A stretch of 64,000 nt of DNA from a virus (taxonomy: Duplodnaviria > Caudoviricetes), in the IMG/VR virus record IMGVR_UViG_3300028840_002850, positions 698-64,697 of that record, one strand, 5' to 3'. This document shows positions 55,451-60,100 of the stretch, one piece after another. A program made the translations under genes and the position numbers. The notes beneath the pieces were generated by a model. The model ran no database searches. It was given only the letters and a program-made list of their open reading frames with translations, and was not told the DNA's origin. Position 1 is the first letter of the stretch. Each line of letters begins with the position of its first letter.

Positions 55451-57394
55451 ATGGCGACTAATATCACCGGCGTTACAATGCCTACTCCTGGTGGCGACCC
55501 CGCCATTAATGCCAATGGCAACTTCGCAATGGGGGGGCAGATAACCACAGCTGGTGGTGGCGGTTGGAGCGAGTCTGGTGATATGTATTTCCAGTGGGAT
55601 CAGGGCCTTGGCGACAGTGAGGGAAATTACGCTGACCTTGGTTCTACCGGCGATTTAAACATAGCGGCTCAGACCAATCCGATAACCGGGTTGCAGACGG
55701 AAACCGAGCAGCAAGTTACCGTTTACAACGACGGAACAGCCGGTACTTTTTATATTCGTGTTAAACTGATCGAAGACGACTTGACGGAGCATACCACCGC
55801 TGGACAACAGGTTACGGTAAGTGCTCAAGAACAGCAATCGGAATCGGTTAGCGAGAGCGCTAGCGAGAGTGCCAGCGAATCGGCGTCCGAATCCGCATCT
55901 GAGTCGGCTTCAGAGTCGGCGTCTGAGTCTGCCAGTGAAAGTCAATCAGAGTCAGCCTCAGAGAGTGCTTCTGAATCTGGATCATACAGCGCCTCAGAAT
56001 CAGAATCCGCGTCGGAATCCGCTTCTGAGAGCGCCAGCGAAAGCGCAAGCGAGTCTGCCTCCGAATCGGCGTCAGAAAGTGCCTCAGAAAGCGCCTCAGA
56101 GTCAGCTTCGGAAAGTGCTAGTTATTCTGCCTCAGAGTCAGAATCAGCATCCGAATCGGCGTCAGAATCAGCTTCCGAAAGTGCTTCCGAATCTGCCTCA
56201 GAATCAGCTTCGGAGAGCGCATCCGAGTCGGCCTCATATTCAGCATCAGAATCCGAAAGCCAAAGCGAATCCGCATCAGAAAGCGCGAGTGAGAGTGCCA
56301 GCGAATCGGCCTCAGAAAGCGCGTCGGAATCTGCAAGTGAGAGCGCAAGTGAATCGGCTAGCGAATCTGGTTCATATTCAGCTTCCGAGTCAGAGTCGAC
56401 CTCAGAAAGCCAATCGGAATCTGCGTCAGAGTCGGCCAGTGAAAGCGTGTCGGAAAGCGCTTCGGAGAGCGCATCTGAATCGGCATCTGAATCAGCAAGC
56501 CCGTCAGCATCCGGTGGAATATCCGAGAGTGCAAGCGAGAGCGCATCGGAATCGGCTTCAGAGAGTGCGTCAGAAAGTGGCAGCTATTCGGCATCGGAAT
56601 CAGAATCTCAATCCGAATCTGCCTCAGAGAGTGCCTCAGAGTCGGCATCGGAGTCACAATCAGAAAGCGCGTCCGAATCTGCCAGCGAGTCAGCTTCAGA
56701 GTCGGCGTCAGAAAGTGGCAGCTATTCGGCATCAGCATCCGAATCGGCCTCTGAGTCTGTCAGTGAGTCTGCCAGCGAATCGGCATCGTACAGCGCATCT
56801 GAATCAGAATCAGCTTCTGAAAGTGCGTCTGAATCGGCAAGTGAGTCAGCGTCCGAAAGCGCATCGTATTCTGCTTCTGAATCCGAATCGGCATCTGAAT
56901 CCGCTTCTGAGAGTGCGTCAGAGAGCGCGTCAGAGAGCGCCAGTTATTCGGCATCTGAGTCTGAATCAGCATCGGAGTCTGCCAGTGAGAGTGCCAGTGA
57001 ATCAGCAAGCGAATCAGAGTCGTATTCAGCATCTGAATCAGAATCGGCATCTGAAAGCGCATCAGAGTCAGCATCCGAATCGGCCAGTGAGAGTCAGTCT
57101 GAATCCGCATCAGAATCCGCATCAGAAAGTGCTTCTGAGAGTGCGTCTGAGAGCGCATCGGAGTCTGAGAGCGAATCTGCATCAGAATCAGCTTCAGAAA
57201 GCGCAAGTGAGAGCGCCAGCGAATCAGCGTCATATTCCGCATCAGAGTCGGAGTCGGCTAGCGAGTCGGTTTCGGAATCGGCTTCTGAGAGCGTGTCTGA
57301 GTCGGCATCACCAAGCGAATCATCTGCAAGCGCATCGGGCGGTGGGTCTGCTACCGGTGGCTGCGTATTTGTGAGTACTATATTAATTGGCTAA
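55451..57394 (+). CDS. Serine-rich repeat (mucin/SRR-like) protein
   Basis: About 125-aa globular N-terminus then about 500 aa of (SESA)n punctuated by SYSASE; no signal peptide. Confidence 0.85.
55836..57335 (+). repeat. Degenerate 12-bp coding repeat (Ser-Glu-Ser-Ala)
   Basis: Over 100 units with mixed TCN/AGY codons. Confidence 0.9.
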
Positions 57395-59609
57395 AGTATC
57401 TGTCATAATAGCAGGAAGATGTGAACAATATTTTCAAAAAACCGTTGAGTCGGTTTTTGAGTCAGCTAAAGAAGACGTTGAGGTTATGGCTGTTGTTGAT
57501 GGGCCGGGGCAAGACCCACCCGTCAAGGAAACAAAAAACACAAAGGTTATAAATCTTCCAGAATCCATCGGGCAGAGGGCAGCTTATAACATGGGTGTTA
57601 AAGAATCATGTGGTGAATATGTAATGAAGATAGATGCTCATGCCTTATTGTCGCCTGGATTTGATGTTAAGTTGAAAAACAACTGCCCACCCAAAACGGT
57701 AGTCTTGCCGGAAATGAGAAGGCTTGATCATAGGAAATGGAAACCAAAACCAAGGGGTAAAACTCTTTTCATGTATCCCGGCCTTGATTTGTACTGTCAT
57801 TACTGGAAGGATTACAAAAAACGACCAGAGGCAAAGGTTGACTATCCCGAAGTTATGACAGGGCAGGGATCGTGCTGGTTTACAACAAGGGAATGGAACG
57901 ATTATATAGGATTGCTCGATGAGGGTGTGGGATCATGGGGCAATGTCGGGATCGAGGTTTCTTTAAGAACATGGCTTTGCGGTGGTCGGCAAATAGCAAA
58001 TAAAAATTGCTGGCAAGCCCACTGGTTTAGGGTTTCAGAGGGTGGTTTCCCATATCCGTTTTCAGGAAGACAGGTAGCCAGGGCGCACAAGTACACATGG
58101 GAAAACTACTATTTTAAAGATAACGCCTTTAAAAATCAAGTTAGACCGTTTCATTGGTATATTAAAAAATTTGCTCCTGTACCTTCGTGGGAAGTTTATT
58201 TAAAAGATCAATACAAACCCAATAGAGTTATCGTATATTACACAGATAACAATCTTGAGAGATCACTTGCTGATGCGGCAAGGAAGAATTTGATAAAAGC
58301 GGCTGGGCCAATTCCGATTATAAGCGTTTCTCAGGAACCTTTAAATTTCGGTCAAAATATATGTGTCGGCAAAAAACCAAAAACAAAGTTGTCAATGTAC
58401 GAGCAAATGCTTGAGGGTGTAAAAGCCGCACCGGATGATTCTTTTATTTATCTATGTGAACACGATGTATTTTATCATTATAGCCATTTTGAAAAAGTAC
58501 CGCCCAAAGATGATGCTGTATGGATAAACCAAAATAAATATCACTGGCAGCAGGGAAATCATTTTTATCTAAAGGCGAAGGACCAGAAAGCATGGAGCAT
58601 GGCAACTGGTTCTAAAAAATATTTATTAGAAAAACTTGAAACCACCGTTAAAAATAAAATGGGTGAAATGAAGGTTAGGTGGTTTAAGTATAATAGTGAA
58701 CGGCCAAACATTGATATACGGCATGATAGGAACTTAACAAAAGGAATAAAAGCACACAAGAAACAGATTTTTAATATCGCAGGGTGGGGAAGCCCTAAAC
58801 ATTTTAAATCCGTTGCAAAATATAAAGGGACAATGCGGTTTGATATAATTCAATGGCTAATAGATTTTTATGATTTTACATCGTACCTTGAGATTGGAGT
58901 AAATAAGGGGCATACGTTTAAAGTTATAAAATGCGAGTTAAAGCATGGCGTTGATCCCAAAAGTAAATTTGCAACACACAAGGTAACAAGTGACGAATAT
59001 TTTAAAGGTTGTGATTTAAAATACGATATTATTTTCGTAGACGGGTTGCATGAACACTCACAGGTAAAGCGGGACATCTTAAATTCACTTGATCATTTAA
59101 AGCCGGGTGGGGTTATTGTGGTTCACGATTGTAAACCCCGTAATGAAAAAGAGCAGCACGTTCCCAAGCTTCCTAACCAAAAAATATGGGTTGGAGATGG
59201 GTGGAAAGCATTTGTTGAGTTACGCGAACGCAATGATCTTTATATGTATGTTGTGGATACAAATAATGGCGTTGGAATAATCCGGCGCGGTTTTCAGGTG
59301 CCACTAAAAAGAGATTGCCCTCTTGATTGGGTAAATTTTCAAAGAAATACAAAACGATGGTTGAAATTAAAAACGCCGGATGAATTTAAAAAATTTGAGC
59401 ATGACCTTTTTGAAGTTAAGAAATACAAACCGATGTCGCTTAAAATGATGGAAAAGCAGGGTGGTCGGCCAGGAACCATTTGTCAAGAATTAAGGGAAGT
59501 GTATTACAACATAGACAGTGAAGACCTAAAATATAAACTTCGGGTTTGTATGGCAATGGTTAAGTCGATGCACAGGCGCTTAAACGAATACAAAGAAAAC
59601 TTGTCTTAA
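57387..59609 (+). CDS. Multidomain glycosyltransferase: ppGalNAc-T-like GT-A + second GT-A-like domain + class I methyltransferase
   Basis: [34 protein letters not shown]...[19 protein letters not shown]...IFVDGLH...GGVIVVHD. Confidence 0.8.
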
Positions 59610-60100
59610 TGCACGAAAACAGCTATAAATTAATGAGGGGATTTGTCAGAAAGTATGTTGATTTGGACAAGCCGTTATTAGTTGCCGAAATTGGCAGTAT
59701 GCAATACCACGACCAGCCCTGGTTATATAGGAATCTTTTTCACGACAAGCACGTTTATTTGGGAATTGATATTGAAGATGGGCCAAATGTAGATTGTGTT
59801 TTGAAAAATCCTTACGATTGGAAAGAGCTTAGAGACACTTCTTTTGATATCATCGTAAGTGGCCAGATGCTTGAACATTGCGAAAAATTCTGGTTAGTGG
59901 CTAAAGAGATGAAAAAAATCATAAAACCCGGTGGTTTGATTTGCCTTGTCGCTCCCTGGATGATGGGCAAGCACAAGGCTCCGGTTGATTGTTGGAGGAT
60001 TTTACCGGACGGGATGAAGGTTATTGGGGATTTGATGGGTGCGGATACTGTTGAGGCCCGAAGGTCAAAAAAAGATTGCATAGGTATTTTTAAGGTGTAG
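59609..60100 (+). CDS. Class I SAM-dependent methyltransferase
   Basis: EIGS, YLGIDI.DGPNVD, FDIIVSGQMLEH, KPGG and PVDCWR. Confidence 0.85.
   Translation: MHENSYKLMRGFVRKYVDLDKPLLVAEIGSMQYHDQPWLYRNLFHDKHVYLGIDIEDGPNVDCVLKNPYDWKELRDTSFDIIVSGQMLEHCEKFWLVAKEMKKIIKPGGLICLVAPWMMGKHKAPVDCWRILPDGMKVIGDLMGADTVEARRSKKDCIGIFKV

Follow-up and report, generated by a model that had tools for sequence, protein, structure and literature searches.

Can a tailed phage build a mucin-like glycoprotein with enzymes of its own? The question is raised by a 64,000-nt stretch of viral DNA (Duplodnaviria; Caudoviricetes), here called the window, which covers positions 698 to 64,697 of the IMG/VR record IMGVR_UViG_3300028840_002850. 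Between window positions 55451 and 60100 an open reading frame (ORF) for a protein with serine at almost every second position (an SX protein) is followed, with overlaps, by the genes of a 740-aa three-domain enzyme and of a smaller methyltransferase. Our analysis identifies the polypeptide N-acetylgalactosamine (GalNAc) transferases of family GT27 as the closest solved relatives of the first enzyme domain, and finds homologous enzymes next to SX ORFs in most of the related viral loci that could be assessed. From these comparisons we consider it reasonably probable that the 740-aa enzyme would O-glycosylate the serines of the repeat.

The repeat protein

The SX ORF (55451-57394; this and all other features of the cassette lie on the + strand) encodes 647 aa from an ATG start, with AGGAG 8-12 nt upstream. 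Its product has three parts. An N-terminal non-repeat domain (residues 1-129; 55451-55837), which matches no Pfam, PHROG or NCBIfam family, is followed by the Ser-alternating region, mostly (SESA)n (residues 130-625; 55838-57325), which we propose as O-glycosylation substrate and extended stalk, and by a short C-terminal tail with the stop codon (57326-57394). In the 496 residues of the repeat serine occupies 247 of 248 alternate positions. The other register holds 117 E, 99 A, 11 Y, 6 Q, 5 V and 5 G, the remaining five residues being P, T, I or S. The whole protein has a net charge of about -131. It shows no hydrophobic N-terminal segment; its most hydrophobic 19-residue stretch (hydropathy 1.28) is at the C-terminus. 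Elsewhere in the window (~62 kb) there is no further Ser-alternating ORF.

The repeat is no young DNA repeat. All six Ser codons occur in it (TCA 63, TCG 46, AGC 44, TCT 40, AGT 31, TCC 24). One 12-aa peptide is present in 19 non-overlapping identical copies that are encoded by 19 distinct DNA strings with a mean nucleotide identity of 64.5%, and Tandem Repeats Finder obtains matches of only 64-95% on the repeat DNA. Within the SESA unit the entropy peaks at third codon positions (0.98-1.97 bits at all four). At the first two codon positions it is 0 for Glu and Ala and 0.78-0.96 for Ser, because both TCN and AGY codons are in use. Scrambled codons with variation at third positions indicate that the amino-acid pattern is under strong selection in this frame. 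On the same codon-position entropies, a 517-aa ORF in the +2 frame (55821-57374) and the minus-strand ORFs within the repeat were rejected as shadows of the repeat.

DNA of the phage is present in runs X1-X3, and no RNA run is listed as containing it. In run X3, which belongs to a third study, contigs span 55677-56442 and 56891-57706, including the junction of the SX and enzyme genes, with 0 differences, and the junction is therefore no assembly artefact. Many apparent joints within the repeat at 85% likeness were not accepted as length variants; they come from short contigs with 5-12 mismatches and were taken as cross-mapping of other Ser repeats.

The enzyme

The enzyme gene starts at TTG 57387, overlaps the end of the SX ORF by 8 nt and encodes 740 aa. 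The N-terminus MAKVSVII lines up with the N-termini of 28 homologues. The protein is basic (isoelectric point 9.35, net charge +34) and has no membrane segment (maximum 19-residue hydropathy 0.84). It consists of three conserved domains (D1-D3), each of which is also found separately in other proteins. At its end the enzyme stop codon overlaps the ATG of the next gene by one base at 59609 (TAATG). The gene arrangement thus bears out an initial annotation of the region, made from the sequence alone, which had described a Ser-alternating protein of about 500 aa without a signal peptide, an overlapping enzyme start at TTG 57387, TAATG coupling of the enzyme to a methyltransferase and a location in the tail region; the genes indeed lie between a 1760-aa ejection-type protein and fibre and beta-helix genes. 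The non-repeat N-terminal domain and the short C-terminal tail of the SX protein go beyond that description.

D1 (residues 1-272; 57387-58202) is a GT-A domain that resembles polypeptide GalNAc-transferases. Pfam places it only in the generic family Glycos_transf_2 (E 8.6e-10). Searches against the PDB are more specific: in a single-sequence phmmer search nine of 11 matches are polypeptide GalNAc-transferases (best 6s22, E 2.6e-8), and in a profile search built on 29 homologues these enzymes make up 15 of 39 matches, including the top four, again with 6s22 as the best (E 9.9e-13, over residues 4-225). The bacterial GT2 enzymes in the profile search cover no more than the first ~100 residues of D1. 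The control was a GT2 of the ordinary kind from a related phage cassette, searched in the same database; it matches chondroitin synthase, SpsA and the like, and none of its seven matches is a GalNAc-transferase.

The likeness extends to the residues that characterize the family. A DXH motif, a GalNAc-T motif and a Mn-binding His are described as hallmarks of GT27 (PMC6994419). In D1, D83-A-H85 aligns to the DAH of 6s22 and 1xhb (LDAHCE), the stretch W184-G-x-x-x-x-E190...W196-x-C-G-G aligns to WGGENIEMSFRVWQCGG (the Gal/GalNAc-T motif), and H212 (AHWFR) aligns to the GHVFR of GalNAc-transferases. D83, H85, W184, G185, E190, W196, G199, G200 and H212 are invariant in the 29 aligned sequences. 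Together these data support a putative assignment of D1 to the polypeptide-O-glycosyltransferase type rather than to a lipopolysaccharide (LPS)- or DNA-directed one.

D2 (residues 273-482; 58203-58832) has no match in Pfam at E<=10. Against the PDB a single-sequence search gave none, and a profile search gave nothing significant (best E 0.85, to stomatin, judged to be chance). Comparison by hhalign with D1 and with the methyltransferase domain showed no similarity either. D2 carries conserved YYTD and EHD motifs that are invariant in the homologue alignment, and these motifs by themselves suggest that it may be a second nucleotide-sugar-binding domain. Atlas feature scores for D2 reach at most 0.85 and are a lead only.

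D3 (about residues 483-672) and a 68-aa C-terminal extension with the stop codon occupy 58833-59609. The domain belongs to the S-adenosylmethionine (SAM)-dependent family Methyltransf_24 (Pfam, E 1.5e-12), and its PDB profile matches are 3ntv (3e-7), the O-methyltransferase 3tr6 and caffeoyl-CoA O-methyltransferases. By these relatives D3 is predicted to be a small-molecule O-methyltransferase of the catechol/sugar type. PHROG families 27561 and 2675 label it a DNA methyltransferase; since its Pfam and PDB relatives are O-methyltransferases, the label misfits and was rejected. No lectin family was found in residues 273-740 of the enzyme in Pfam at E<=10.

The next gene (59609-60100) encodes a separate 163-aa class I methyltransferase (Pfam Methyltransf_11, E 2.8e-8). 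A homologue of it lies beside the glycosyltransferase in only three of 18 related viral loci (L006, L007 and L012; E<=1e-20), with a weak match in L019. The separate methyltransferase is therefore accessory, and it is the fused one that travels with the glycosyltransferase. In this the initial annotation, which had named the TAATG-coupled methyltransferase, needs correcting.

Distribution and linkage

A word-indexed search with the full-length enzyme (methyltransferase domain included) returned 1327 related proteins, of which the best 120 are labelled only as generic glycosyltransferase/O-methyltransferase or as "hypothetical protein". An exhaustive search with the full-length enzyme gave 535 clusters at E<=1e-30. 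The D1-D2 part was detected in none of 50,697 GenBank phage records (tblastn, E<=1e-3), nine of which matched the methyltransferase domain only, and in one of 185,579 species-representative genomes. Work on cultured phages therefore does not see the family. The single genomic match is on a 5.8-kb contig binned to a Gemmatimonadota metagenome-assembled genome, which is too short to be trusted as host evidence. On this contig (L020:1779-4766) the match to 667 enzyme residues spans 2988 nt, about 1 kb above expectation, which suggests an insertion or an alignment gap.

A single-protein locus search of viral contigs returned no loci; an alignment-based search found them. In all, 99 loci around enzyme homologues (numbered with the prefix L) were collected, of which 78 are distinct and 61 assessable (at least 300 nt upstream). 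An SX ORF abuts the enzyme start upstream in 43 of these 61 loci and lies downstream only in four more, so that 47 of 61 have one adjacent. The background, counted in control DNA of related loci away from the enzyme, is one SX ORF in 95 kb. When enzymes are clustered, an SX ORF is nearby in 11 of 12 assessable clusters at single-linkage 60% identity and in 36 of 47 at 80%.

A second sample was seeded not by the enzyme but by its neighbour p111, a conserved 111-aa protein (60104-60439) that is the syntenic partner of the cassette (22 locus copies with 52-81% identity). It comprises 75 loci, 50 of them with at least 3.5 kb upstream. Among these 50, glycosyltransferase and SX ORF occur together in 14, the glycosyltransferase only in seven, neither in 29 and the SX ORF only in none (Fisher p 1.2e-7). 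When only the eight contigs outside the enzyme-seeded set are used, p is 3.6e-5; their enzymes are far more divergent, with 28-38% identity. The initial annotation had left it to a survey whether such glycosyltransferases are linked to Ser-rich genes at all. They are, in 47 of 61 loci, and in the p111-seeded loci an SX ORF never stands without the glycosyltransferase.

The architecture around this pair varies. The SX ORF is upstream in most loci and downstream in L015-L018 and L097. In L118 the enzyme functions are on separate genes, namely a GT2, a Methyltransf_24 protein and a two-domain glycosyltransferase. A cassette at L097:1494-13466 combines a 36%-identical enzyme homologue with two DegT-type aminotransferases, an RmlD-like (reductase-like) protein, another GT2 and three methyltransferases, and two SX proteins follow directly after these glycan genes. 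L097 is a fuller phage glycan pathway.

Repeat composition and charge

The 66 distinct related repeat regions measure 69-647 residues, with a median of 223. Their Ser register consists of 96.6% Ser and 2.1% Thr. The other register is composed of Ala (33%), Glu (30%), Pro (12%), Val (9%) and Gly (5.5%), and Asp, Lys and Arg are nearly absent. With one register constant and the other variable, conservation applies to the hydroxyl at every second position and neither to charge nor to a given peptide.

The charge per residue of the repeat ranges from -0.26 to -0.01 across loci, and it correlates with the net charge of D1-D2 (Spearman -0.54, p 8e-4, n=35 loci). The control shows no such relation: repeat charge against p111 charge gives +0.29 (p 0.2, n=21), whereas repeat against enzyme on the same 21 loci gives -0.66. 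The correlation is modest evidence that enzyme and repeat meet.

Non-repeat domains, C-terminal tail and p111

The N-terminal domain of the window SX protein recurs with 55-69% identity at the N-terminus of seven proteins of 392-951 aa, the remainder of which is made of other kinds of repeats, not SX. Its presence on proteins with quite different repeats marks it as a shared module of repeat fibres. A match of this domain to FimG (E 0.0049, 16.6 bits against a cut-off of 220 bits) was disregarded. To the N-terminal domain of the SX protein in L002, the closest relative by enzyme sequence (84% identical), it shows only marginal likeness (E 0.002). Among the non-repeat parts of related SX proteins we found Laminin_G_3 (concanavalin-like) twice, CBM96 once and a weak beta-helix match once; most have no family.

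In most SX proteins of the upstream type the last 24 or so residues form a conserved tail, with PIISSNGIHSLIMGGLIING as the consensus of the final 20. It has four invariant positions, exists in 38 distinct DNA versions and has entropies of 0.83, 0.51 and 1.60 at the three codon positions. The tail always stops right at the glycosyltransferase start (e.g. L065:2908-2979, L003:7928-7999; window 57326-57391). The window and L002 share a divergent form of it, ending in ...ILIG. A search with the back-translated tail pattern hit four loci only, all on contigs already known to carry the enzyme. The tail may serve as an anchor, in docking to the enzyme or in oligomerisation.

The tail type goes together with p111, whose N-terminal Met-Gly-Cys is invariant in 23 sequences (the window and loci within L002-L083). 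In all 25 assessable loci with the conserved tail (22 recognized by a script pattern and three variant tails by eye) p111 comes right after the enzyme; it does so in none of the 11 assessable loci with another tail type or without an upstream SX ORF. By itself p111 is far more widespread than the cassette. At least 492 longer proteins have it as their N-terminal module, and some of these carry BNR_2, Laminin_G_3 or BppU_N (precomputed Pfam); it also starts a beta-helix protein in L118. A domain that heads many proteins with diverse C-terminal domains is most simply explained as the virion-anchoring domain of receptor-binding proteins, and p111 is probably such an anchor domain, previously undescribed.

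Interpretation

How could the parts work together? The SX protein and the enzyme would be made together in the cytoplasm, late in infection, by translational coupling. D1 would act as a Mn-dependent GT-A transferase that takes a sugar from a nucleotide sugar of the host and attaches it to the Ser hydroxyls in the acidic repeat. D2 would probably add a second sugar or handle or act on the first, and the fused O-methyltransferase, here joined by the 163-aa one, would methylate the sugar, possibly as a cap. The expected product would be a densely O-glycosylated, stiff, extended and protease-resistant mucin-like stalk on a fibre-type protein of the receptor-binding module. The analysis demonstrates the sequence features, the kinship of the domains at sequence level, the conserved gene pairing and the complementary charges, whereas transfer to Ser, the sugar's identity, the target of methylation, incorporation into the virion and the biological role (shielding, adhesion or glycan mimicry in the initial annotation) are steps that we infer.

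Several observations weigh against this scheme. No adjacent SX ORF is in view in 14 of the 61 assessable loci, nor in seven of the 21 glycosyltransferase-bearing loci of the p111-seeded sample. Among the 14, L024 has an SX ORF 730 nt upstream, and in seven the sequence ends no more than 5 nt downstream of the glycosyltransferase match. L040, which is without an SX ORF despite 1.1 kb upstream and 2.6 kb downstream, is a real exception as far as its DNA reaches, and so are L098 and others. No nucleotide-sugar gene turned up among the 45 ORFs of the window that were scanned. Acceptors rich in Thr and in Pro are preferred by GT27 enzymes, which also have a lectin domain, whereas the phage acceptor would be almost pure Ser and the phage enzyme has no lectin domain. 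That the SX protein belongs to the virion we infer from its gene position only. Finally, the loci are phylogenetically related, so that linkage counts and correlations overstate independence.

The loci without an SX ORF could also mean that the enzymes act on another glycan, such as a host surface polysaccharide in lysogenic conversion, a free or lipid-linked glycan or another virion protein (for example a tailspike), the SX protein then being a flexible polyanionic fibre spacer. The phage is temperate (integrase, ERF, YqaJ), temperate phages are known to carry O-antigen-modifying GT2 enzymes, and the Pfam assignment of D1 is generic. Still, we regard this explanation as unlikely. The enzyme lacks a membrane segment, and its gene belongs to a late structural operon, in which the + strand shows no terminator-like site from 54000 to 61500. 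None of the 29 p111-seeded loci that lack the enzyme has an SX ORF, and the charge of the enzyme tracks that of the repeat, which the charge of p111 does not. The best solved relatives of D1 are polypeptide transferases, whereas the control GT2 matches polysaccharide synthases. The initial annotation had likewise favoured a protein acceptor over LPS or DNA, and a soluble, basic enzyme with GT27 relatives would fit that choice.

Could the SX region instead be functional by itself, as an unglycosylated acidic brush or with another modification such as phosphorylation, so that the pairing would merely reflect the shared mobility of a fibre module? Its 117 Glu among 496 residues would make the window repeat extended and highly charged even without sugar. 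Fibre modules move whole between phages; a P22-type portal is found in one of five related records and a recognizable relative of the window capsid protein in none of the five, although an empty result of such a search shows nothing by itself. However, other loci keep the Ser with Pro, Gly, Val or Ala in the other register and a charge near zero (e.g. -0.008 and -0.06 per residue), and the pairing persists despite the varied gene order (L015-L018, L097) and the split genes of L118. We therefore hold this explanation to be quite improbable. To a role in the glycosylation or methylation of phage DNA bases we give a very slim chance. It would draw on the PHROG labels for the fused domain and on tblastn matches of this domain to Cellulophaga phage genes annotated "DNA methylase". 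The domain is a Methyltransf_24 with small-molecule O-methyltransferases as solved relatives (3ntv, 3tr6, caffeoyl-CoA), a bona fide N6/N4 DNA methylase is encoded separately in the early region of the phage, and the cassette is placed among fibre genes and tied to SX ORFs.

O-glycosylation of the repeat, which we prefer, can be extended to a wider proposal that we put forward tentatively and with some doubt. Uncultured phages may have a large undescribed GT27-like branch that makes true mucin-type, Ser-O-linked, O-methylated bottle-brush stalks on modular fibres. Such a fibre would have a variable, often lectin-like head, an SX stalk of up to about 650 residues and a 24-residue C-terminal peptide docking to the virion or the enzyme; the glycosyltransferase-X-methyltransferase chain would be a prime-extend-cap line, and GT27 kin would reach deep into the viruses of prokaryotes.

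If the preferred explanation holds, tailed phages make their own mucin-like glycoproteins with a relative of the animal mucin-initiating enzyme; on the wider proposal, a family regarded as starting mucin glycosylation in eukaryotes would have deep kin among prokaryotic viruses. Phage virion glycosylation, which in the sources cited below is so far shown only for mycobacteriophage capsids and tail tubes, would extend to dedicated repeat fibres of widely varied environmental phages. The enzyme would be a soluble single-chain candidate for dense Ser-O-glycosylation and methylation. The system would also be relevant to the way phages get through capsules, biofilm matrix or sediment particles and to how GT27 evolved. 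We found no literature on a phage GT27-like enzyme paired with a Ser-alternating protein, judging papers outside subscription-only journals by title and the start of the abstract.

Comparison with known systems

The eukaryotic polypeptide GalNAc-transferases of GT27 (6s22, 1xhb/8v9q, 6e4q, 5nqa) are the closest solved relatives of D1 over the whole catalytic domain. At the sequence level they share with it the DxH motif, the WGxxxxExSxRxWxCGG motif and a downstream His, and the presumed phage acceptor is likewise a Ser-rich repetitive polypeptide. The differences are considerable. GT27 enzymes are type II membrane proteins acting in the Golgi lumen, whereas the phage enzyme is phage-encoded and cytoplasmic and has neither a membrane anchor nor a ricin-type lectin domain. 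It is fused to D2 and an O-methyltransferase, the sequence likeness is low (E 1e-8 to 1e-13), and the presumed acceptor register has 96.6% Ser against 2.1% Thr.

A second precedent, already drawn on in the initial annotation, are glycoproteins with serine-rich repeats (SRR) found in Gram-positive bacteria (Fap1, GspB, SraP, PsrP, the SRRP of L. reuteri). Their alternating Ser are described as spaced mostly by Ala, Val, Thr or Glu, their repeats as glycosylated in the cytoplasm by co-encoded enzymes and as thought to form a rigid rod on which the binding region is held out, with an anchoring element following at the C-terminus (PMC6973325). The comparison holds for this repeat chemistry and for the order of parts, since in both groups a variable domain is followed by an SX stalk and a short conserved C-terminal element. 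It fails for homology. The phage has no long signal peptide (about 90 aa), AST domain or accessory Sec genes (SecA2, SecY2, Asp) among the 45 window ORFs compared with Pfam. The window SX protein lacks LPXTG, and related phage proteins end in the conserved tail PIISSNGIHSLIMGGLIING instead. Neither GtfA/GtfB nor DUF1975 was seen, Glycos_transf_2 being the only glycosyltransferase family in the window scan. The priming enzyme of the phage would be a GT-A of GT27 type where that of SRR systems is GT4, methylation would take the place of O-acetylation, and the setting is a phage fibre module. The phage system works like SRR-adhesin glycosylation and is not a member of it.

The domain plan of the enzyme recalls A064R of chlorovirus PBCV-1. 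The PDB holds domain 1 of A064R, and no chain so named is among the 39 PDB matches; no sequence relation was detected. A064R is reported as a three-domain glycosyltransferase-glycosyltransferase-methyltransferase that builds the glycan of the capsid protein, its C-terminal domain methylating the terminal sugar (PMC7019647). Both proteins are viral, cytoplasmic single polypeptides with a C-terminal methyltransferase, and the proposed logic is to add, extend and cap; D1 and D3 of the phage enzyme would fit this logic, and D2 has no detectable relative. The glycan that A064R extends is N-linked and belongs to a eukaryotic virus's major capsid protein, whereas the phage target would be O-linked Ser repeats.

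Among phages, the mycobacteriophages Che8, Corndog and Myrna are reported to glycosylate their own structural proteins with their own glycosyltransferases (Freeman et al. 2023, as cited in PMC12363180 and PMC12691614). Their targets are capsid and tail-tube proteins, not a dedicated repeat protein, and their glycosyltransferases are not detectably related to D1-D2 of the window (tblastn against the 50,697 GenBank phage records). What is specific to the phage studied here is the strict (SESA)n, the three-domain O-methyltransferase fusion, the conserved C-terminal tail with p111 synteny and the charge complementarity of enzyme and repeat.

Genomic setting

The source record has 64,697 bases with direct terminal repeats and is rated complete; its positions 45-144 repeat the last 100 nt of the window. 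The phage is a complete 64.7-kb temperate phage with a P22-type portal. Packaging and head genes of the window comprise a small and a large terminase, the portal (E 5e-80), the capsid protein and an SU10-type adaptor, and its tail genes include beta-helix tailspike-like proteins. A minus-strand block holds the temperate and replication genes (integrase, ERF, YqaJ, an N6/N4 DNA methylase and a phosphoadenosine phosphosulfate (PAPS)-reductase-like protein). There are no tRNA genes in the window.

The cassette is located on the + strand downstream of the 1760-aa internal/ejection-type protein and two small proteins, and upstream of a giant fibre-like gene and two beta-helix genes. Directly before it, a 107-aa tail-fibre-like protein is encoded at 55092-55415 (+; phrog_11338 "tail fiber protein", E 3.7e-6). 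The lack of + strand terminator-like sites between 54000 and 61500, together with promoter-like matches that are no more frequent than in shuffled controls, fits one long late transcript. We propose that the four genes form a late-operon cassette inside a receptor-binding-protein module.

Four further observations concern neighbouring and distant genes. The 1760-aa protein (49168-54450, +) has a ParB_N-like stretch at residues 713-773. With a C-terminal part that matches phrog_11358 and anti-restriction families of the DarB kind, it is probably a protein of the virion interior that is ejected. A gene downstream of p111 and ahead of the giant ORF (60452-60904, +) encodes a 150-aa protein without a family match in Pfam, PHROG and NCBIfam searches, whose N-terminus MKKLLIAFLILFAWVSISFAAG is signal-peptide-like (hydropathy 2.40). 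The giant ORF itself runs for 2514 codons without an internal stop across the circular junction, from window 61008-64000 through record positions 145-697 to window 1-3999. It matched no Pfam or PHROG family, and its N-terminus MGLFASRSCDMKKRFLALTLLIIFTAGLAYA, with a 19-residue hydropathy of 2.14, resembles a Sec signal peptide, an unusual feature in a virion fibre. In the early region (13906-17030, -) the N6/N4 DNA methylase (E 7e-52) and the PAPS-reductase-domain protein (E 5.5e-24) may form a DNA-modification pair.

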